A stretch of DNA of 64,000 nucleotides from Syntrophales bacterium. Lineage in GTDB: Bacteria > Desulfobacterota > Syntrophia > Syntrophales > UBA2210. How positions within the stretch are numbered: the first letter of the stretch is position 1; every line of letters begins with the position of its first letter. Positions 28,419 through 39,100 of the stretch are shown here, piece after piece. The notes under the pieces were generated by a model. It worked only from the letters and a program-made list of their open reading frames with translations. It did not search any database and was not told the origin of the DNA. Where the stretch lies: NCBI GenBank assembly GCA_963662405.2, contig CAXXKT010000001.1, positions 64,001-128,000 of the forward strand, given 5' to 3'. A program made the translations under genes and the position numbers.

Positions 28419-29630
28419 ATGTCGGTATATTTGTGGGAGGGAACAACCAGAAGGGGGGAAAAGAAAAAGGGTGAAATGGAGGCAGCGGATGAAAGCAGTG
28501 TGAGGATCCAGCTCCGCCGTCAGCGAATCAAACCCGAGAATATAAAGAAAAAACCCAAGGATCTCTTTGAGAACATTCCTTTCCTTCAGCAGAAGGTCAA
28601 AGAGCATGATGTGGTGGTCTTCGCCAGGCAATTCGCCACGATGATCAACGCCGGGCTCCCCATCATTCAGTGTTTGGACCTCCTCGGTGAAGAGGAAAAA
28701 AATCCTTCTTTTGCAAAGATCATCAAAACGATCAAAGATGATATCGAAGGAGGATCTTCGCTCACGGATGCCCTCAGCCAATATCCTGACGTCTTTGACG
28801 AACTGTTCGTCAACCTGATCACTGCCGGTGAAGCGGGCGGCATCCTGGATGTGATCCTCAATCGTCTTTCCGCATATATGGAAAAAGCGATAGCACTGAA
28901 ACGGAAAGTCAAGGGAGCTATGACGTACCCGGTTACCGTTCTCATTGTTGCCGTAGCGGTGGTCATCCTCCTCCTTTACAAGGTTGTCCCTGTTTTCGAG
29001 GAAATGTTTTCAAGCATGGGATCGGCCCTCCCGGGCCCGACACAGTTTCTTGTCGATCTGAGCCGTTTCGTTCAAAACAATATCCTCTATATACTGGGGG
29101 GAATCGCCCTCTTCGTCTTTGTCTTTCGGAGATATTACAAAACCCGGCGGGGGAGACTTCAGGTAGATCGTTTTGTCCTCAAGCTACCCGTATTCGGCAT
29201 CTTACTAAAGAAAGTCGCCGTAGCAAAATTCTCACGGACCCTCTCCACGATGATGAGCAGCGGCGTTCCCATCCTTGACGGACTTGAGATCGTCAGCAAG
29301 ACAGCGGGGAACAAGGTGATCGAAAAGGCCCTGATGAACACCAGAAAGAGCATAAGTGAAGGGAGGACGATCGCCGCGCCCCTTGCGGAAGCGGACATCT
29401 TTCCTTCCATGGTCGTCTCCATGATAGCGGTGGGTGAAAACACCGGCGCCCTCGATGCCATGTTGGAAAAGATAGCCGATTTTTACGATTCCGAGGTGGA
29501 TGCCGCGGTGAGTGCCTTGACATCACTGCTTGAACCCATCATGATGGTGTTTCTGGGAGGTGTTGTGGGGGGGATGATCGTCGCCCTCTATCTGCCCATC
29601 TTTTCGATGGCAGGAGCCGTCGCCGGGTAG
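28419..29630 (+). CDS. pilC: Type IV pilus platform protein PilC (T2SSF family)
   Basis: RQFATMINAGLP, GEAGGILD, KVKGAMTYP, GENTGALD, EP..M...YLPIF. Confidence 0.92.
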   Translation: MSVYLWEGTTRRGEKKKGEMEAADESSVRIQLRRQRIKPENIKKKPKDLFENIPFLQQKVKEHDVVVFARQFATMINAGLPIIQCLDLLGEEEKNPSFAKIIKTIKDDIEGGSSLTDALSQYPDVFDELFVNLITAGEAGGILDVILNRLSAYMEKAIALKRKVKGAMTYPVTVLIVAVAVVILLLYKVVPVFEEMFSSMGSALPGPTQFLVDLSRFVQNNILYILGGIALFVFVFRRYYKTRRGRLQVDRFVLKLPVFGILLKKVAVAKFSRTLSTMMSSGVPILDGLEIVSKTAGNKVIEKALMNTRKSISEGRTIAAPLAEADIFPSMVVSMIAVGENTGALDAMLEKIADFYDSEVDAAVSALTSLLEPIMMVFLGGVVGGMIVALYLPIFSMAGAVAG

Positions 29631-29642
29631 CAATTCATAAAA

Positions 29643-29719
29643 TGGTCGGGATGGCGCGATTTGAACGCGCGACTCCTGCGTCCCGAACGCAGTGCCCTAC
29701 CAGGCTGGGCCACATCCCG
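29643..29719 (-). tRNA. tRNA-Pro(CGG)
   Basis: CGGGATGTGGCCCAGCCTGGTAGGGCACTGCGTTCGGGACGCAGGAGTCGCGCGTTCAAATCGCGCCATCCCGACCA; 77-nt cloverleaf, encoded CCA. Confidence 0.96.
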
Positions 29720-29871
29720 ACAGCCCCATTGACTATATAATTTATCTCGAAATGTCCATAAAAAAGTGAACCATGCCGTGTGCAATCTGCGTTAAAGGTG
29801 ATGTCACGACTTGTCTGATGCGGATTTTCATGATATTGGTCAGCCAACGCTCTACAGGAGGAATCGGTTCC

Positions 29872-30288
29872 GTGATCATTTATGACCTCAAGTGTGAAAA
29901 TAGCCACACTTTCGAAGGCTGGTTCAACGACAGAAATGCCTTTGAAAATCAGCGAAAGAAAAATCTCGTCACCTGTCCGGTGTGCGGCAGTTCGAGCATA
30001 GATATCGTCCCTTCAACCATTACGGTCATGGGAAAGGGGACCGAGCGACTCAATGATTCACGTAAACGAGAACTCTCCCCCCTGAAGGCCCTCCAGATGT
30101 TCCACGAGTATGTCGATAAGACATTCGAAGATGTGGGAAGCCGGTTCGCCGAAGTTGCCCTGCGGATCCACGCCGGCGAGGAAGACCACAGAAACATCAA
30201 GGGAACCACGACGGAACGGGAAGAAACCGTCCTCACTGAAGAAGGCGTCCCTTTCGTCAAGATCCCCGTACCGAAGTTCGACAGCTGA
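29872..30288 (+). CDS. DUF1178-like Zn-ribbon protein
   Basis: GTG start after AGGAGG; IIYDLKCENSHTFEGWF...TCPVCGS...EDVGSRFAE. Confidence 0.82.
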   Translation: MIIYDLKCENSHTFEGWFNDRNAFENQRKKNLVTCPVCGSSSIDIVPSTITVMGKGTERLNDSRKRELSPLKALQMFHEYVDKTFEDVGSRFAEVALRIHAGEEDHRNIKGTTTEREETVLTEEGVPFVKIPVPKFDS

Positions 30289-30313
30289 CTCCGATGCAAT
30301 CGGGGGGCTCCCC

Positions 30314-32623
30314 ATGAAAAAACGCTATAACAATATTCTTGATCTGATCGGGGGTACCCCTCTCGTTGAGATCCGCCGTTTAAATCCCCACAAACACGTC
30401 ACCATCTATGCCAAAATGGAGGTGATGAATCCCGGTGGATCAATCAAGGACCGAACCGCTCTCGCTATGATAGAGAGGGCCGAGGAGAGGGGGGACCTCA
30501 CTCCTGGAATGATCATCCTCGAGGCAACCAGCGGCAACACCGGCATCGGTCTTGCGATGGTCGCGGCAGCAAAGGGGTATCGCCTGACCCTGATCATGCC
30601 CGAGTCGGCCAGCGAAGAGCGGAAAAAAACAGTAAAGGCCATGGGCGCCCACCTGCATCTGACCCCGGCCGAGCTGGGAACCGACGGCGCGATCGAGGTG
30701 GCGTACGAGATGCTCCGTGCTCATCCCGAACTATATTTCGCCACCGATCAGTTCAACTCCGAAGACAACATCATGGCCCACTACCACGGAACGGGGGAAG
30801 AGATCTGGGAGCAAACCGACCATCAGGTTACCATGGTCGTGGCAACCCTCGGGACATCCGGGACCGTTATGGGCATCTCCCGGAGGCTTAAAGAATACGG
30901 CAAAGATATAAAAATCGTCGGGGTTGAACCCTATCTCCACCACAAGATTCAGGGGCTCAAGAACATGAAGGAGTCATACCGGCCGGGTATCTTCGATAGG
31001 AACCTCCTGGATGAAAAGGTCAACATCCTGGATGAAGACGCCTTTGAGATGGCCCGGGCCCTGGCACGCACCGAGGGACTCTTCGTCGGCATGAGCTCCG
31101 GTGCGGCCATGCACGTGGCCCTCGAAAAGGCCCGGGAGATGAACGAGGGGGTGATCGTGGTCATCTTCCCCGACGGCGGTGAGCGGTATCTCAGCACATC
31201 CCTCTTTTCGGACCGTGAAGAGGTTTCTCTTCACCTGTACAACACGCTCACCCGGACCAAAGAACCCTTCAAACCGCGCAACGCCGATCAGATCCTGATG
31301 CACTCATGCGGACCAACCATGCACGAGGTGCCGCACATCGGGACATACCGCCGCTTCATCGTGGCGGACATGGTCGTCCGCTATTTGGAATTCAAGGGAT
31401 ATACGGTCAAACATGTCTCCAACATCATAGACCTGGCCGACCGATCCGTCCGCGGAGCCGAGAAGGCAGGCATGGATATCGGGGCCTTTACCCGCGGGCA
31501 CACCGAGACCTTTTTCAACGATCTCGCCACGCTCAATATCAATCATGATAATACCTACCCAACGGCGAGTGAAAACGTCGACGCTATGATCCAACTGACG
31601 GAGCAACTCGTGGAGAGAGGGTATGCTTACGAAAAGCTGCGGTCCGTGTATTTCGACATATCACGGCTCGAAGGCTACGGGACTTTGTCAAATATAGACT
31701 TGGCACACGTCCGCCATTCTCAGACAATCGACCAAGACGATTACGCAAAGGACAGCCCCGTCGACTTCAATCTTCTCAAGCGGTCTACTCTGGCTGAGCT
31801 GAAGGAGGGAATCTATTTTAAGACAAAGTGGGGAAACACCAGGCCCAGTTGGCACCTCGAGTGCGCAGCCCTCTCCATAAAGTATCTGGGGGAAACCTTT
31901 GATATCTACCTCAGTGGTACGGACATCATCTTCCCGCACTGCGAGAACGTCATGGCGATCGGCAAGGCCGCAACGGGGAAAAATATCGCGAACTACTGGC
32001 TCGCCTCCGAACTCGTCATGCTGGACGGCAAAAAGATGTCACGATCCCTGAACAACTTCTTCTCCGTGGTCGATCTCGAGAAGAAAGGATACACCGGGAA
32101 AGAGATCCGATATTTTCTCCTGAGTGCCCATTACAGAAAGCCTCTGTCCTTCTCATTCGGCGCACTGGATACCGCCTGTAACACAATCAAGAAACTGGAT
32201 ACCTTTATCCAGAGGCTCCTCCGGTTCTCCCCGGGGGGTGGTTACCCCGAGACGGATCAGCTCATATACGACGTCAGGAAGGGGTTTACCGAGGCAATGG
32301 ATGACGATTTCAACATCTCCGGAGCACTCGCCTCCCTGTTCGAATTCGTCAGGAAAATCAACATTCCTCTGGCGGCAAACCAACTGACCACACAGCAGAG
32401 GGACTTGATTCTTGCTATCATGCAGCGGATCAACTCCGTCCTTCTCGTGATGGATTTTCAGGAAAAGAGACTCAGTAGCGATGCCGCACTACTGATGAAG
32501 GAACGAGCAACGGCACGGGCCGCAGGCAACTGGGAAGAATCCGACCGCCTGCGCCGGGAACTTGATGCTCGGGGAATTTGCGTTCACGATACACCGGAAG
32601 GAACAACATGGACCGTCCGGTAA
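30314..32623 (+). CDS. Fusion: PLP cysteine synthase (CysK/CysM family) plus divergent cysteinyl-tRNA synthetase domain
   Basis: NPGGSIKDR, EATSGNTG, FPDGGERYLS then, in frame, LYNTLTR, CGPT..PHIG, RPSWHLEC, KMSRS, MDDDFN. Confidence 0.9.
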   Translation: MKKRYNNILDLIGGTPLVEIRRLNPHKHVTIYAKMEVMNPGGSIKDRTALAMIERAEERGDLTPGMIILEATSGNTGIGLAMVAAAKGYRLTLIMPESASEERKKTVKAMGAHLHLTPAELGTDGAIEVAYEMLRAHPELYFATDQFNSEDNIMAHYHGTGEEIWEQTDHQVTMVVATLGTSGTVMGISRRLKEYGKDIKIVGVEPYLHHKIQGLKNMKESYRPGIFDRNLLDEKVNILDEDAFEMARALARTEGLFVGMSSGAAMHVALEKAREMNEGVIVVIFPDGGERYLSTSLFSDREEVSLHLYNTLTRTKEPFKPRNADQILMHSCGPTMHEVPHIGTYRRFIVADMVVRYLEFKGYTVKHVSNIIDLADRSVRGAEKAGMDIGAFTRGHTETFFNDLATLNINHDNTYPTASENVDAMIQLTEQLVERGYAYEKLRSVYFDISRLEGYGTLSNIDLAHVRHSQTIDQDDYAKDSPVDFNLLKRSTLAELKEGIYFKTKWGNTRPSWHLECAALSIKYLGETFDIYLSGTDIIFPHCENVMAIGKAATGKNIANYWLASELVMLDGKKMSRSLNNFFSVVDLEKKGYTGKEIRYFLLSAHYRKPLSFSFGALDTACNTIKKLDTFIQRLLRFSPGGGYPETDQLIYDVRKGFTEAMDDDFNISGALASLFEFVRKINIPLAANQLTTQQRDLILAIMQRINSVLLVMDFQEKRLSSDAALLMKERATARAAGNWEESDRLRRELDARGICVHDTPEGTTWTVR

Positions 32624-32678
32624 AACTATTGGCCTCCAGGGATTGTCATCCTCACGGGCAGGCCGAAAGGGAATCTTT

Positions 32679-32984
32679 ATGAAATTTGTTTTGCTCATCG
32701 CCGCGCTGATTGCGGCCTACATACTCAGCCAGTGGGGTGTCATCATGATCACGAAGAGTGTCTGCAGACGTATTATTAAAGACCTTGATTCAAAAAGGGC
32801 ATACGCTGCGGATTCGGCCGTCTCTCTCCCCTATGCGCAGAAGAAAGGGCTGCTTCACATCGGTACGAGAGACTACAAACCGCAGGCTCTTCAGTATCTG
32901 GTACACAAAGGAATAGTCTGTGCGACGGATGACGGCAGGTTTTACCTTGACGCCGCAAAGTCACAGGATACTATCCGATTGTAG
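32679..32984 (+). CDS. Small hypothetical membrane-anchored protein
   Basis: Hydrophobic N-terminus MKFVLLIAALIAAYIL; AAAGGGAA upstream. Confidence 0.6.
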   Translation: MKFVLLIAALIAAYILSQWGVIMITKSVCRRIIKDLDSKRAYAADSAVSLPYAQKKGLLHIGTRDYKPQALQYLVHKGIVCATDDGRFYLDAAKSQDTIRL

Positions 32985-33040: not shown

Positions 33041-33697
33041 TCAGCGGTGCTGTTTCACTCCCACCTTTTCACATAATCCGGAAACGGGGCACCGACTGCA
33101 CAGGGGCGAGACGGGACGGCAGGTCCCCCTCCCGAATGCCACCATGAGGGTATTATACCCCGTCCAATACCGTCGGGGAAGTTTTGCCCGCAGGGCATAC
33201 TCCGTTTCGTCAGGCCTTTTCGTCGTGACATATCCCAGCCGATTCGAGATCCGGTGTACATGCGTGTCCACACAGATTCCTTCCCCCCCGTATCCCAGCG
33301 TAACGACCAGGTTGGCGGTCTTTCTCCCCACCCCCTTAAGCGTCAGCAATTCGTCAATACTGTCCGGAACGCGGGACCCGTATCGATCAACCAGTTCACG
33401 GCAGACATGGAGGATCGTCCGAGCCTTGGTGCGATAGAATCCCACCGGGTAAATAACCTCGGCTATCTGTTCCGGCGAGAGTGCCAGCATCTCCTCCGGG
33501 GTCAAGGCCAGCTCAAAGAGCCGCCGGGTGGCCACCTCGGTCACTTCATCCTTGGTTCTCAGGCTGAGGAGCGTGGATACGAGGATCTGAAAGGGAGACC
33601 CCCTCTTCTCGGCCAATTCGGAAACGACGGGGAGCTTTTCTGAAGCGAGGGCCCTCGCTATGGTTTCGATAACGGTTATTATATGGGACTCTTTCAT
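33041..33697 (-). CDS. nth: Endonuclease III
   Basis: HhH LKGVGRKTAN, VDTHVHRISNRLG, C-x6-C-x2-C-x5-C. Confidence 0.94.
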   Translation of the reverse strand: MKESHIITVIETIARALASEKLPVVSELAEKRGSPFQILVSTLLSLRTKDEVTEVATRRLFELALTPEEMLALSPEQIAEVIYPVGFYRTKARTILHVCRELVDRYGSRVPDSIDELLTLKGVGRKTANLVVTLGYGGEGICVDTHVHRISNRLGYVTTKRPDETEYALRAKLPRRYWTGYNTLMVAFGRGTCRPVSPLCSRCPVSGLCEKVGVKQHR

Positions 33698-33754
33698 ACA
33701 CAACACTGACCGGCGGACGACATCCCCGTCCGGTCCTGCTACCGGTACCAAGGG

Positions 33755-34588
33755 CTATTCGTAGCCTTCTTCATCGGCAAGAATATCCAAGTGCAGCGTC
33801 GCAATATCCTCCACATCCAGGTTAGGTTCCTTCTCCGCCTTCCTGAAATCGACCGCCTTTATATATTTGTTGCAGACATTGCACACGTCGACCCGGTATT
33901 TTTCCTCGTTCTCGATCGTGAAATAGGCGAGGGTCTGCTGGTCCTCGTTCCCGCAGAAAGGACACCGTATGCGTTTAAACCGCCATTCAAATCCGCACTG
34001 ACCGCAGAAGAGAAAGCGTTGCCCCCCCTCTCCCTTGAGCTCCGATATCTTCGGTTCCCTGCCGCATATGGGACAGTACCCCTCGGCCCACTTCGATGCG
34101 GCGATGACGTCGCCGTATTTTTCAGAGAGAATCTCCAACGCCGGCCGCAGGCTTTCTTCAACAAGAAAGCCCAACAGATCGAAAACACCCTCCTCCTGCT
34201 CATCCGAGGTCTCCTCATCCTGTGGTATGGCAAAGGATTCGCGGACCATCTCACGATAGTCCAACTCACCGGTATTGACCCGGCAAATGATTTCACCGGT
34301 CTCTTCCAATGCCCTTCGCTGCGCTATCTCGAGGAGGGCGATAAAATACTCTTTCGGCTCTTGCAGTTCAAAGGTCCCCTCGGGAAAATCGACCAGGGGA
34401 AGTCCCCCTTCCAGCTTCTGCTGTATGAGCGACTCATCGACGTTGAATATATCCCGGTTAACCTTGCGACGGTATTCCTCCCGCAGGATCAGCACCTCTT
34501 CAAGGATATCGAGCAGTTCCTCGTAATGAGGATTCATATGTTTGTACCCGTCGATCATTTTCAGGGTATCTTTCAGTAGTTGTGCCAT
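33755..34588 (-). CDS. fdhE: Formate dehydrogenase accessory protein FdhE
   Basis: Four CxxC pairs (CPICG, CGQCG, CPFCG, CNVC); DIATLHLDILA; fdh context. Confidence 0.9.
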   Translation of the reverse strand: MAQLLKDTLKMIDGYKHMNPHYEELLDILEEVLILREEYRRKVNRDIFNVDESLIQQKLEGGLPLVDFPEGTFELQEPKEYFIALLEIAQRRALEETGEIICRVNTGELDYREMVRESFAIPQDEETSDEQEEGVFDLLGFLVEESLRPALEILSEKYGDVIAASKWAEGYCPICGREPKISELKGEGGQRFLFCGQCGFEWRFKRIRCPFCGNEDQQTLAYFTIENEEKYRVDVCNVCNKYIKAVDFRKAEKEPNLDVEDIATLHLDILADEEGYE

Positions 34589-34745
34589 GATTCACCTCGT
34601 ATGGGTTATGAAAGCGAAGTCCCCCTATATATGCTTTTCCCGGCAATTTCAAGCATTACTTATCCGAGCAGAAAGGGGCCTGCTCTCGATCGAACAGACC
34701 CCTTATATGCATGAACTCTTCACGCCTCAGGCGTGAAGGCTTTTC

Positions 34746-35384
34746 TTATTTTGAGACTTCCAGTTTTCCGGATTCTTCCATCTCCTTAAGCCATTTCGGA
34801 CACTGTTTCTCCGCCCAGGAACGTGTAACCCACCCCGTCAGGATGGCGGAAACGGAACCGGGGACACCAACGGTTCCCAGATACAGATGGATAAAGAAGA
34901 AGGGGAAGATCACCAAAAACCCGAGTGCATGGAGGGGGTACATCCACCGCACCAGCTCCACGGGGAGGCCCAGCGGGAACCACATAATCAACCCGGTGAT
35001 GATCATGATCACCCCGAAGAGCGCCACCGCCCAGAAGAAGGCCTTCTGTCCGGGGTTGTATTTCCCCGTCTCGGGAGGATTATCGACGTGCCACAGGTAC
35101 CCGCCTGCCACCTTGATCCACTCCAGGTCTTCGGGAAACTTGAATATACCCGCCTCCTTCCACCATATCGCTATGGCGAAGAGGAGCGACGGGATGAACA
35201 CGAGCCCGGAGAAGTTGTGGATCAGCTTGAGGGTCTTCAGCCCCCCAACCGGAATCGCGAGAAAATTGAATGCATGAAACATCATCCCCAGACCTGAAAT
35301 CATCAGGATCAGGCAGGAAAAGGCCATGCACCAGTGCACGATTCTCTCAAACCCATCGGACGCCTTTATCATTCCTTTTTTCAT
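34746..35384 (-). CDS. fdnI: Formate dehydrogenase gamma subunit (cytochrome b556)
   Basis: ERIVHW, GKYNPGQK, TM heme His residues, IHLY. Confidence 0.9.
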   Translation of the reverse strand: MKKGMIKASDGFERIVHWCMAFSCLILMISGLGMMFHAFNFLAIPVGGLKTLKLIHNFSGLVFIPSLLFAIAIWWKEAGIFKFPEDLEWIKVAGGYLWHVDNPPETGKYNPGQKAFFWAVALFGVIMIITGLIMWFPLGLPVELVRWMYPLHALGFLVIFPFFFIHLYLGTVGVPGSVSAILTGWVTRSWAEKQCPKWLKEMEESGKLEVSK

Positions 35385-35385
35385 C

Positions 35386-36180
35386 TTATTCGCCTCCTTC
35401 CTTGCTTACCTGATCCCCATCACCGCTGGTGTCCTTGGGCCCGTGGGTGATGTAGTGCAAGAAGGATCCTGCCAAAACACCGCCGGCTGCAAGCAGGCTG
35501 AGCGGCTTGAGCCAGTCCTTCCATGCGATAACGGAAAGGGGCACACGCGGTTTCTCGGGAAGCCTGTCATAGACGCCGGCCTTTCTCGGAAGGACATACA
35601 CCATGTGCGTCCCATCCACAAAGGTATCGCCATAGACGGAGGCGTCGCCGCCCAACTCCTTGGCCCGTGCATACGCCACCTTCAGCATCTCATTCTTGTC
35701 ACCGAAGCGCAGGGCGCCGGTGGGACAGGCCTTGACACAGGCCGGTTCCATCGCGTTGTCGATCCGGGAATAACACAGATCGCACTTGACGACCTTGTCG
35801 GTATCCGGATCGTATCGGGGCACTTCAAAGGGGCAGGCAAAGACGCATTCCTTGCAGCCGATACACTTGCTGTTGTCAAGGGCGACCGTACCGTACTTGG
35901 TATGGTAAAGGGCGCCGCTGGGGCAGACCTTGACACAGGCCGCGTCGGTGCAGTGCATACAGGCATCATGCCTGAACAGCCAGTCAACAGTGCCGTTATC
36001 GGATATCTCCTGGAACCGTATCACGTTCCACGTGTTCGGCTGGAGATCCGGCGGATTCTGATAGGAGCCGGTGTTGACGGTCTGCCTCGCCGGCAACTGG
36101 TTCCACTGCTTGCATGCCAACTGGCATCCCCGGCAACCGGTACACTTGGAAAGATCGCACAGTTTTATTTTCTCAGACAT
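35386..36180 (-). CDS. fdnH: Formate dehydrogenase beta (Fe-S) subunit with C-terminal TM anchor
   Basis: CTGCRGCQLAC, CMHC..AACVKVCP, CIGCKECVFACP, KCDLC..PACVKACP. Confidence 0.92.
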   Translation of the reverse strand: MSEKIKLCDLSKCTGCRGCQLACKQWNQLPARQTVNTGSYQNPPDLQPNTWNVIRFQEISDNGTVDWLFRHDACMHCTDAACVKVCPSGALYHTKYGTVALDNSKCIGCKECVFACPFEVPRYDPDTDKVVKCDLCYSRIDNAMEPACVKACPTGALRFGDKNEMLKVAYARAKELGGDASVYGDTFVDGTHMVYVLPRKAGVYDRLPEKPRVPLSVIAWKDWLKPLSLLAAGGVLAGSFLHYITHGPKDTSGDGDQVSKEGGE

Positions 36181-36183
36181 GGC

Positions 36184-39100
36184 TTACACCTCCTTCCTCT
36201 CGACATTTACCATGAAGGCCTTGCTCTCCGGGATCATGGTATTGGCATCCCCGATGAACGGAGTCACGATGTTGGCGGAATCACCGAAGGTAAAGACCTC
36301 CGGTTTCTTGTCACCATGGACGTATTCCCGCATCTTCGTGGTAATCCAGCCATAGTGCCACGGAATCCCGACCTCGTGAATCGTGTTGCCGTCGATAGTA
36401 AAGGGTTTCCACCGTTCCGTCACGATCGCCACGGCATCGACCGCTCCCCGCACTGACTTCACGGTAACGATTTCGCCGTTTTTGATCCCCTTATTCTTGG
36501 CGAGCTCCGTCCCCATCTCCACGAACATGGCGGGCTGCATCTCCGCGAGCCACGGGCACCAACGGGTCATAAGACCGGTCTGCCAGTGCTCGCTCACCCG
36601 ATAGGTCGAACAGATAATCGGAAACCGCGGATCACAGGTCGCCCGCGCATCCACGTTCGTCCCCGTGCCATCCTCGTCCCACCTCTTGATCGTCGGATTG
36701 ACAAATTGCGGGGACATGATGTTACTCTCGACGGGGCATTCCAAGGGCTCATAATGCTCGGGGAAGGGACCATCCGCCAGACCAGGACCGAAGATCGAAC
36801 CGACCCCGTGGGACTTCATGATGAAGGGGGGCCTTCCGGCGCCCGGTGCGGCAACACCGTCCGGCACATCGCCGGTCCACTTGGCACCGTTCCACATAAT
36901 AACGGGATGCTTGGTATCCCACGGTCTCCCCGTTTCCGGATCGACGGAGGCACCGTTGTAGATGATCCTGCGGTTGACCGGCCAGCACCACGCCCATTCG
37001 GAGTAGAGACCAATGCCGGATGTATCCTTCTTGCCCCGGCGGGCCGCCATGTTCCCCTTCTCGGTATAGGAGTTGCAGTAGAGCCAGTTCCCCGAAGAGG
37101 TGGAACCGTCATCCTGAAGGTAGGCAAAACTGGGAACCAGGGTGCCCTTCTTGTACAGCGTCCCCTTGATCTCCTTATCCTCGAGGAAGTAGCCGTTGAT
37201 CTCCTTGGCGATGTAGTGGGTGTCCAGGTGCCGGACCTTGCCGTCCACATCCTTGGGTCCGTAATCCCACGTCATCTTGGTGATCGCCTCTTTCAAGGGA
37301 CCACCCTCCTTCTCGTACAGTTCCTTGACCTTGTAGAAGAGTTCCGAGATGATCTCGCCGTCGGGAATGGCCATCCCCGGAGAATCGACCGCCTTGTAAC
37401 GCCACTGCATCCAGCGGCCGCTGTTGGTGATCGACCCCTCTTTTTCGATCGAGGCGGAGCAGGGGAGCATAAAGACCTCTGTCTTGATCTTCTTCGGGTC
37501 CATCCCGGGTCCCTTCCAGAAGGATCCGGTTTCGCTGTCGAAGATATTGACATTGACCATCCACTCCAGTTTTCCCATGGCCTCACGCGTTTTGTTGGAA
37601 CTGGCCCCGCTGCAGGCGGGGTTCTGCCCCCACGCGAAAAAGCCCGTGAACTGCTCCTTGTACATCTTGTCGAAGAGGGTCAGCCACGAATAGTTCTTGC
37701 CGTCATCCAGCTTCGGCAGATAGTTGTATGCCTCTTCCAGCGTTGCGTTCGTTCCATAGTGCGCGCGGAGGAGACTTGCCACATACTTCGGGTAATTCTT
37801 CCACCAGTTCAGACTCTTGGGTTCTACCGTCGAGGGCGTAAACTTCGCGTTATACGCGGCCAGGGTCGGCAGAGACGCCTTGGGGGTCTTCAGATACCCG
37901 GGGAGGATGTGGAAGAGGAGGCAGTGGTCGGTTGAGCCCTGGACATTGGACTCACCCCGGAGGGCATTGACACCGCCACCGGCGACTCCCATATTCCCCA
38001 GGAGGAGCTGAATGATAGACATCGTCCGGATATTCTGGACACCGACCGTATGCTGGGTCCACCCCATGGCATACATGATGGTACCCGCCTTCCCCACCGT
38101 GCCGGTCTTCGCATATTCCTTGTAGACCTCAAGCAGTTTCTCTTTGGGGGTCCCGGTGATCCGAGAGACGATCTCCAGATTGTACCGGGAATAGTGCCTC
38201 CTGAGAAGCTGATAGACGCAGTTGGGATCCTTCAGTGTCATATCCTTCTTGACGACACCGGCCAGATCCGTCTGAAAGGACCAGGAGGACTTGTCATACG
38301 TGGCGTCTTTGAGACCGGAGAAGACCCCATCGTTGTCTCCGGGGAGCTTGAAGTCGGGGTTCACCAGGAACGAGGCGTTGGTATAGTACTTGACATACTT
38401 TTCCTGGATCAGGTTGTTATCGAGGATATAATTGATCATACCACCTAGAAAGGCGATGTCACTCCCTGATCGGAGAGAGGCATAGATGTCGGCCTTCGAA
38501 GAGGTCTGTGTGAATCGGGGATCGACATTGATCAGCTTCGCGCCGTTCTCCATAGCCTTGGTAACGTACTTGAATGAGATGGGATGATTGGAAGCCGCGT
38601 TACTTCCCATGATTAACACACAATCACTGTACTGGATATCGATCCAGTGATTGGTCATTGCACCGCGTCCGAACGACTCTGCCAGAGCCGCAACAGTTGC
38701 GGAGTGTCAGATACGGGCCTGGTGTTCAATATATACCAGACCCAACCCCCTCAGGAATTTTTGATAGACGAAGCACTCTTCGTTATCCATGGCGGCACTG
38801 CCGACGGAGGCGATGCCGTTGGTCCGGTTTACCACCTGACCCTTCGCGTTTGTCGCGGTAAAACTCGCATCCCTGCTCTTTTTTATGTTGCGAGCAATCT
38901 TTTCGATCATCCATTCCCACGATTTTTCTTCCCACTTGTCGGAATAGGGCGCCCGGTAAAGAGGTTTGTCAAGACGGTTCTTATTGACGGAAAGCTGATA
39001 AATAGACCCTCCCTTGCTGCAGAGTGAACCTCTGTTTACCGGATGATCCGGATCCCCTTCCGTGTTGATGACCTTGCCGTTTCGGGCGGACACGATGATC

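Follow-up and report, generated by a model that had tools for sequence, protein, structure and literature searches.

A cysteine synthase joined to a cysteinyl-tRNA synthetase paralogue in Syntrophales, and its possible role as a tRNA-Cys/ligand-binding regulatory module

The fused gene and its two halves

The window analyzed here is a stretch of 64,000 nucleotides from a Syntrophales bacterium of the phylum Desulfobacterota (assembly GCA_963662405.2, contig CAXXKT010000001.1, positions 64,001 to 128,000 of the forward strand), and the gene in question encodes a cysteine synthase of the CysM type joined in frame to a protein that resembles cysteinyl-tRNA synthetase (CysRS) over its entire length (Table 1). 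A preliminary description of this DNA, made from the letters alone, had proposed a single open reading frame of 769 aa with an intact pyridoxal 5'-phosphate (PLP) domain and a CysRS half beginning at position 31229, which is borne out by the Pfam and NCBIfam searches and by the analysis of the reading frame. The frame is open already from 30110, and the reading that starts at the ATG at 30314 (MKKRY) is taken as the true one, because it agrees with the lengths of the 120 best database matches listed (mostly 769–771 aa) and with their query coverage (89–100%, for most of them 99–100%). A Logan contig of 7,736 nt (run X1, which may be the assembly's own source) covers positions 30200–32700 without a gap or a difference, and the fused frame, or contig-split pieces of one, was identified in 98 of the 121 sampled Syntrophales genomes; the stop codon between the domains, which the preliminary description had considered, is therefore absent. 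An assembly artefact or a pseudogene is ruled out by this order-wide frame and gap-free contig, together with the fixed substitutions and the constraint on both halves described below. Two loci of the sample are irregular: in one, the two halves occupy adjoining, overlapping separate frames (G065:C251:2304-4527), and in the other the fused frame is interrupted by one in-frame TGA (G057:C7:173021-175027); each may represent a split, a frameshift or an assembly error.

Table 1. Features of the fused gene and of the gene upstream of it (positions in the window)
Feature	Position	Strand	Details
Fused cysteine synthase/CysRS-like gene	30314..32623	+	769 codons plus stop (ATG 30314, stop 32621-32623)
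CysM-type PLP cysteine synthase half	30314..31207	+	aa 1-298; PALP and TIGR01136 over cut-off
PLP lysine K45	30446-30448	+	within the CysM half
Short junction	31208..31228	+	aa 299-305; model pLDDT 67-77
CysRS-like catalytic body	31229..32188	+	aa 306-625; TIGR00435 and Pfam tRNA-synt_1e
C332	31307-31309	+	CysRS-like body
HIGT	31334-31345	+	CysRS-like body
I372, replaces T68	31427-31429	+	1LI5 alignment
C517	31862-31864	+	CysRS-like body
H542-C543	31937-31942	+	CysRS-like body
V546, replaces E238	31949-31951	+	1LI5 alignment
KMSRS	32033-32047	+	CysRS-like body
Anticodon-binding helical and C-terminal domains	32189..32620	+	aa 626-769; Pfam DALR_2, CysS_C
DUF1178 zinc-ribbon gene	29899..30288	+	PF06676, 120.9 bits; ends 25 nt upstream of the fusion

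The Pfam domains follow one another as PALP (aa 9–287), tRNA-synt_1e (aa 319–622), DALR_2 (aa 658–710) and CysS_C (aa 720–766). The N-terminal 298 residues exceed the cut-off of the cysKM family (TIGR01136, 363.5 bits versus 344.15) and miss that of the CysM equivalog (TIGR01138, 369.2 bits versus 394.2). The closest solved structures are those of CysM, the O-acetylserine sulfhydrylase B of E. coli and Salmonella (2bhs and 2jc3, 268 bits), and the PLP lysine, the asparagine loop, the glycine loop and the serine of these enzymes are likewise intact in the fusion: among 50 fused rows, which include some genes fetched twice, S[IV]KDR is present in 50, TSGNTG in 49, GT[TS]GT in 50 and S[SA]G in 50. 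The fusion differs from CysM by the CysRS-like extension of 470 aa and by an LKNM loop in the place of IRRW, and its PLP half has an invariant lysine, K216, at the alignment position of Arg210, a residue of the anion-binding loop in the enterobacterial enzymes. The N-terminal half is likely to be a catalytically competent sulfhydrylase of the CysM type.

The C-terminal half is recognized by the cysS profile TIGR00435 (aa 306–767, profile positions 1–464 of 466) with a score of 380.6 bits, and the fused protein scores 283.7 bits against E. coli CysRS (1LI5). Like the canonical enzyme (E. coli CysS, 1LI5 and 1U0B in the PDB), it possesses the Rossmann body, the connective-peptide (CP) insertion, the stem-contact fold and complete anticodon-binding and C-terminal domains. 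The alignment to 1LI5, combined with a residue-by-residue count that provides the E. coli numbering used throughout, identifies C28, W205, C209 and H234 as common to both proteins, and HIGH→HIGT, T68→I, D71→A, K73/K76→R/R, H224→Y, H235→C, E238→V, H256→A and K269→R as changes in the fusion, which differs from canonical CysRS also at W184, W194, G201 and Q241. Every motif substitution listed in the preliminary description is present (the motifs are NPGGSIKDR and TSGNTG in the PLP half, and ADRSV, DFNLLK, RPSWHLEC, DIYLSG, FPHCENV, WLA and KMSRS in the CysRS-like half). According to one study, C28 and C209 bind zinc in E. coli CysRS and are required for translation (PMC5660078). In the fused protein three members of the zinc-site set C28/C209/H234/E238 are present and E238 is lost, just as had been described earlier (two cysteines and one histidine kept, the glutamate gone). 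Newberry et al. in 2002 reportedly assigned H234 and E238 as the remaining zinc ligands, T68 is said to hold the α-amino group of the substrate, and a cluster of histidines is said to surround the zinc.

A paralogue with fixed substitutions

The host genome (3.80 Mb, 100% complete) contains the second cysS that the preliminary description had proposed to look for (C1:1913903-1915369, 555.8 bits), and its motifs are canonical throughout (HIGH, NFTD, PGWHIEC, HGGG, FPHHENE, YWMH and KMSKS); a separate cysK-like gene of 295 aa is encoded on contig 3. Among the fusion-bearing Syntrophales genomes, 97 of 98 possess a canonical-type cysS, whole or in pieces, the exception being G078, which is 87% complete, and the fusion is never the sole cysS in an adequately complete genome of the order. 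Because the canonical gene co-occurs with it both here and across the order, the CysRS-like half is a paralogue and not the housekeeping cysteine--tRNA ligase. A third gene of the CysRS family (three cysS matches) was seen in G029, G090, G012, G017, G033, G052, G070, G073, G088, G107 and G120, that of G029 (G029:C44:78462-79688) scoring 298 bits and containing one in-frame TAG. The analyzed genome encodes one tRNA-Cys(GCA) and one tRNA-Sec, which is regarded as a true selC rather than the selC* tRNA-Cys of Mukai et al. because its discriminator is G73; neither a second tRNA-Cys nor selC* was found in this genome. SepRS was not found in it either (TIGR00470, best score 28.8 bits versus 380.65), no search for SepCysS having been made.

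The preliminary description had asked whether the substitutions are conserved or represent decay. In 121 Syntrophales cluster representatives (66–100% identity) they are near-invariant (Table 2), and the lysine at position 269, retained in 0.99 of 127 canonical rows, has given way to KMSRS in all 122 rows of the Syntrophales type. The first histidine and the glycine of the HIGx motif are invariant in the Syntrophales fusions and the fourth residue is T, S or N; since HIGN is frequent in canonical CysRS, the change in HIGH carries little weight. Between members of the order, pairwise identity averages 0.77 in the CysM half and 0.72 in the CysRS-like catalytic body. As the substitutions are fixed and both halves are similarly constrained, the new state is, as judged from the alignments, under purifying selection and not in decay.

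Table 2. Conservation of canonical CysRS positions (E. coli numbering) in the two groups of fusions
Position	State in 121 Syntrophales representatives	Retention, 122 Syntrophales rows	Retention, 34 other Desulfobacterota fused rows
Y26		0.04	1.00
C28	kept in 117	0.96	0.97
H37		1.00	0.59
G39		1.00	0.85
T68	I in 117	0.00	0.94
W205	kept in 120	0.99	0.94
C209	kept in 121	1.00	0.97
H234	kept in 121	1.00	0.97
H235	C in 120	0.00	0.88
E238	V in 114, T in 5, I in 2, never E	0.00	0.68
H256	N in 79, A in 33	0.04	0.97
K266		1.00	0.76
M267		1.00	0.44
K269	R in 121	0.00 (always R)	0.06
S270		0.99	0.12
N273		1.00	0.44

Retention was scored at the 88 positions whose residue is shared by at least 85% of 127 canonical CysRS representatives, separately for 122 Syntrophales rows, 34 distinct fused rows from other Desulfobacterota and 11 representatives of the shorter, unfused paralogue. 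The two groups of fusions exhibit a mirror pattern: in Syntrophales the ATP motifs are kept and the cysteine/zinc pocket is rebuilt, and in the other Desulfobacterota it is the other way round. The pocket residues Y26, T68, H235 and H256 are retained at 0.98–1.00 in the canonical rows, whereas in the Syntrophales fusions these four and E238 are retained at 0.00–0.04, which agrees with the changed amino-acid pocket proposed earlier. The invariants of the stem-contact region are retained at 1.00, 1.00 and 0.89, and those of the C-terminal domain at 0.99, 0.92 and 0.96, in the Syntrophales fusions, the other fusions and the unfused representatives, respectively; the anticodon-domain invariants are retained at 0.86 in the Syntrophales fusions. 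Such values are consistent with the retention of tRNA recognition that the preliminary description had suggested. Y33, R168, W184, W194, G201, G226, Q241 and K269 are lost in all three groups of paralogues. The common core of the family thus appears to be an active CysM together with a body of CysRS shape that seems still capable of holding tRNA-Cys, and adenylation seems dispensable for keeping the fusion, because the sister clades retain it after the loss of the ATP motifs.

The CysRS-like half was used to search 1.84 billion representatives, and a FastTree phylogeny of 85 rows places the paralogues in a clade of their own (Shimodaira-Hasegawa-like support 98), which comprises the Syntrophales fusions (support 100), the other fusions and some of the shorter forms, while the canonical cysS of the same genome belongs to the other main branch. 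Full-length fused genes, identified with a fused query of the 'dead' type, are present in 158 of 401 genomes sampled across Desulfobacterota. Of 80 metagenome loci examined, 78 have room upstream of the CysRS-like gene, and in each of these a CysM gene directly precedes it, fused in frame in 64 loci and separate, at a distance of 9–43 nt, in 14; the pairing with CysM is obligate. The clade of P0127 is truly split into separate CysM and CysRS-like genes; some other 'unfused' representatives are mere contig fragments, as exemplified by a 782-aa member that shares the cluster of P0126. Between the invariant T295 and N310, the junction spans a fixed 14 residues in 40 of 46 fused proteins. An independent fusion of CysM with CysRS was found in a Nanoarchaeota (DPANN) metagenome-assembled genome (P0133, 768 aa), with fully canonical CysRS motifs and a junction of nearly equal length. 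One longer protein, P0157 (858 aa), carries an N-terminal extension.

The AlphaFold2 model of the single chain, based on an alignment of 46 rows, has a mean predicted local distance difference test score (pLDDT) of 88.3 and a predicted template modelling score (pTM) of 0.72. When the halves were folded as separate chains, their interface obtained an ipSAE of 0.41, compared with 0.00 for the best of three controls, and at least 96% of contacts are reproduced between runs, with partner pLDDT of at least 87. Of the 157 solved pairs in the calibration, 116 reach the interface mark, as do 2 of the 215 mismatches; only 18 of these solved pairs, but both mismatches, reach it with scores of 0.60 or less. 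The models lend weak support to a domain interface between the two halves.

The preliminary description had also named cysE as a gene worth seeking. No serine acetyltransferase was found in this genome: the best TIGR01172 match scores 39.6 bits (cut-off 210.65), and the SATase_N and EpsC-type models were negative as well. Classical cysE over the cut-off is present in 13 of 98 fusion-bearing and 10 of 23 fusion-less genomes of the order, and in the sample of 401 genomes from the phylum in 3 of 158 genomes with the fusion versus 83 of 241 without it. A general rule according to which fusion carriers lack any serine acetyltransferase is refuted by the EpsC-type homologues described below; only classical cysE is nearly exclusive with the fusion. 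These homologues score 152–153 bits against the EpsC cut-off of 150 and stay below the cysE cut-off. They are proteins of about 320 aa with an N-terminal extension of 140 aa, widespread in the phylum, where 247 of 401 genomes have a match over the EpsC cut-off (e.g. L157:561-1520 on the forward and L158:976-1929 on the reverse strand). About half of the fusion carriers, including this genome, have no acetyltransferase at all, which suggests that in them cysteine may be made by a route independent of O-acetylserine, such as one from O-phosphoserine. In G073, a cysS scoring 593 bits adjoins a classical cysE.

The genomic neighborhood provides few associations. The gene of the DUF1178 zinc-ribbon protein upstream is probably co-transcribed with the fusion, and it adjoins the fusion in all 7 related Syntrophales loci, yet the entire region is syntenic there (gmk-rpoZ-pyrF-rlmB-pilC-DUF1178-fusion); the pattern search of genome contigs, dominated by one conserved CysRS pattern, yielded 7 fused loci among 80. 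The genes that recur near the fusion in 20 loci of other families have housekeeping roles, encoding thymidylate kinase, SurE, LptD and an HD-domain protein; that of thymidylate kinase precedes the fusion in 7 loci. DUF1178 is not among the recurrent clusters of these 20 loci, whose neighbors were clustered among themselves and not against this gene, and no recurrent neighbor related to sulfur, thiols or tRNA modification stood out among the part of the neighboring genes that was scanned against Pfam. In 8 loci the fusion is flanked by a gene for a protein of about 360 aa that matches no Pfam family (e.g. L137:4982-6073, reverse strand); this gene directly follows the fusion in 7 of them and precedes it in the other. 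A tRNA-Pro(CGG) gene is located at 29643-29719 on the reverse strand, upstream of the DUF1178 gene and the fusion; apart from it, the Rfam scan of 29400-30400 returned only a sub-threshold SAM-II match (19.3 bits versus 44, E 0.75), which is taken as a chance match and not as a leader RNA of the fusion, and the promoter and terminator scans at the locus gave nothing usable. Downstream, at 33041-38658 on the reverse strand, the translations inspected by eye resemble endonuclease III, FdhE and the cytochrome b, 4Fe-4S and large molybdopterin subunits of formate dehydrogenase; the 824-aa frame of the large subunit may extend upstream across an in-frame stop, possibly a selenocysteine codon.

Proposed function and rival explanations

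The reading that we tentatively prefer, and would not yet call probable, is that the CysRS-like half is a tRNA-Cys/ligand-binding regulatory module of the cysteine synthase, working by analogy to HisZ or to the HisRS-like domain of GCN2. In such a protein the C-terminal half would be a paralogue retired as the cysteine--tRNA ligase of the cell and retained to bind tRNA-Cys together with a small ligand (cysteine or a related compound and, in this order, probably also ATP). Given a junction so short and so constant in length, we propose that binding of the tRNA or the ligand alters how active the CysM half is, and the rate of cysteine synthesis would then track the charging state of tRNA-Cys, the level of cysteine or both. 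The fusion would thereby probably couple the making of cysteine to tRNA-Cys status. In favor of this reading are the canonical cysS beside the fusion, the persistence of the fusion in clades that have lost HIGH and KMSKS, the tRNA-binding regions kept throughout the family, the consistently intact CysM half and its obligate pairing with the CysRS-like half, the similar constraint on both halves, the near-absence of classical cysE, the usual point of feedback, and, weakly, the predicted interface. A bolder version, which we regard as doubtful, holds that the synthase is gated directly by tRNA-Cys, which in its uncharged form, read by the retired synthetase domain, would switch synthesis on in replacement of the CysE feedback, and that in Syntrophales the module now uses ATP and its pocket accommodates a thiol other than free cysteine. 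Among the three options put forward in the preliminary description, a sensor fits the family-wide pattern best, channelling is possible, and the charging of a precursor is disfavored.

HisZ and GCN2 provide analogies rather than homologues. HisZ, like the CysRS-like half, is a synthetase paralogue physically joined to a biosynthetic enzyme of its own amino acid, namely HisG(S), and it has lost the adenylation motifs, as have the sister clades of the Syntrophales fusions. It is, however, a class II paralogue and a separate subunit, whereas the CysRS-like half belongs to class I and is fused; HisZ is reportedly devoid of an anticodon domain, and, in contrast to it, the Syntrophales fusion keeps both the ATP motifs and the tRNA-binding domains. 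HisZ is described as lacking adenylation activity and mediating the inhibition of HisG by histidine (PMC9437257), and the regulatory logic of HisZ-HisG is also treated in PMC9734150. GCN2 likewise combines a synthetase-derived domain with an effector enzyme and is activated when uncharged tRNA binds its HisRS-like domain (PMC4335047); GCN2 is a eukaryotic protein with a kinase as the effector, while in the fusion the effector is a biosynthetic enzyme and the binding of tRNA is only predicted.

Several observations weigh against a regulatory module. The CysRS-like half still exceeds the curated cysS cut-off of TIGR00435 (340 bits). The ATP motifs H37, G39, K266, M267, S270 and N273 are retained at approximately 1.00 in Syntrophales, and such fixation argues for ATP-dependent chemistry, or at least for ATP binding, neither of which would be required of a pure sensor. 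The part that has been rebuilt (T68I, H235C, E238V, H256N/A) is the very pocket that a sensor of cysteine would use, and the canonical motifs of the Nanoarchaeota protein indicate that an active synthetase, too, can make use of a fusion of this type. On the structural side the evidence is soft, with a weak interface prediction and a single-chain pTM of only 0.72. Finally, the relationship between cysE and the fusion is phylogenetically structured, and no probability can be attached to it because the relatives are not independent, and EpsC-type acetyltransferases are encoded in 76 of the 158 genomes with the fusion (187 of the 241 without it).

Some of these points would suit a bifunctional enzyme, in which the cysteine made by CysM goes directly to a second, functional CysRS for the charging of tRNA-Cys, so that a toxic, oxidizable intermediate is channelled. 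The TIGR00435 score, the strict conservation of HIGx and KMSRS in Syntrophales, the presence of C28, C209, H234 and W205, the complete anticodon domain, the short junction of fixed length and the independent archaeal fusion are all compatible with it. Nevertheless, we consider it unlikely, as canonical cysS stands alongside in 97 of 98 genomes, a series of canonical invariants is replaced (T68, H235, E238, H256, K269, W184, W194, G201 and Q241), and the sister clades hold the fusion without HIGH or KMSKS.

Or perhaps the rebuilt pocket activates another thiol or selenol in an ATP-dependent reaction and loads it on tRNA-Cys or a different acceptor? Cysteine persulfide, selenocysteine, homocysteine or a mercapto acid without the α-amino group could be considered as substrates. 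The order-wide change of the pocket (Y26H, T68I, H235C, E238V, I239M, H256N/A) beside preserved ATP motifs speaks for such an enzyme, the more so as at least 120 of 121 rows combine H235C with the replacement of E238, a pattern that would be compatible with the exchange of a carboxylate for a thiolate close to the zinc; moreover, a second, persulfide-forming activity of E. coli CysRS is reported in PMC5660078. The same source reports lysines needed for persulfide synthesis, which correspond to R73 and R269 here. Neither a second tRNA-Cys nor a selC*-type tRNA was found in the genome (the lone Sec-like tRNA has G73), no candidate acceptor gene was seen among the partly scanned neighbors, and no substrate can be named from the sequence alone. 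A new-substrate enzyme also seems improbable.

Far less probable is tRNA-dependent synthesis, in which the CysRS-like half would load O-phosphoserine or serine on tRNA-Cys and the PLP half would convert it there, as in SepRS/SepCysS. The absence of detectable cysE or any other serine acetyltransferase from this genome would agree with it, the loss of the glutamate ligand could leave space for a side chain with a negative charge, and K216 aligns with the anion-binding Arg210 of CysM. However, the zinc ligands C28, C209 and H234 are kept, as is W205, and the sister clades retain the fusion although they are predicted to be unable to adenylate, HIGH and KMSKS being lost there; SepRS was not found in the genome. 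The TSGNTG loop, invariant in the family, binds the free α-carboxylate in the cysteine synthase family, so the substrate of the PLP half should be a free amino acid.

MshC has reportedly lost the glutamate zinc ligand, as has the fusion. A ligase of the MshC kind that joins freshly made cysteine to an amine acceptor of a low-molecular-weight thiol is nonetheless hardly credible, even though MshC is a tRNA-independent CysRS paralogue according to PMC2922099 and PMC9437257, since the fused protein scores 177.5 bits against TIGR03447 (cut-off 485.1), the anticodon-binding and C-terminal domains absent from MshC are conserved here, and no recurrent thiol-pathway neighbor appeared among the partly scanned genes.

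Place among synthetase paralogues and implications

CysRS* of Desulfobacterales, which belongs to the same phylum as the fusion, and MshC are likewise CysRS paralogues that occur beside a canonical cysS, but both are devoid of the anticodon domain that the fusion possesses; CysRS* is linked to selC* and selB*, while no selC* was found in the fusion genome, selB* not having been searched for (Mukai et al. 2017, PMC5389517, as far as its text is accessible). The words 'cysteine synthase', 'cysK' and 'fusion' are absent from the accessible text of that paper, and its supplementary tables list a Smithella selC*, which might bear on relatives of the organism studied here. The fusion of CysM with CysRS is not described in the available portions of the survey of class I synthetase-like proteins by Aravind (PMC2922099) and of a large survey of synthetase paralogues (PMC5388404), and a review from 2022 names, in the part at hand, CysRS* and MshC only (PMC9437257). 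The full-text literature search, which did not extend to supplements and most subscription journals, found no paper on such a fusion. The mirror pattern, the obligate pairing with CysM and the near-exclusion with classical cysE are new here. Proteins of this type are, as the preliminary description had anticipated, already annotated in relatives, many named fusion entries bearing the database label of cysteine--tRNA ligase.

Because of this label, pathway reconstructions miscount the fusion, which is present in 158 of 401 Desulfobacterota genomes. The family also offers a natural experiment, in which two lineages have degraded opposite halves of one active site, one keeping the pocket and the other the ATP motifs. 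If the CysRS-like half is regulatory or senses tRNA, it would be a new class I counterpart of HisZ and a rare direct link of a tRNA to the enzyme that makes its amino acid, and if gating by uncharged tRNA-Cys holds true, the fusion would be the first bacterial biosynthetic enzyme under GCN2-style control by tRNA charging. That classical cysE and the fusion nearly exclude each other suggests a control of cysteine synthesis in syntrophs and sulfate reducers that departs from the textbook CysE-CysK scheme, which bears on cysteine homeostasis in sulfidic anaerobes.

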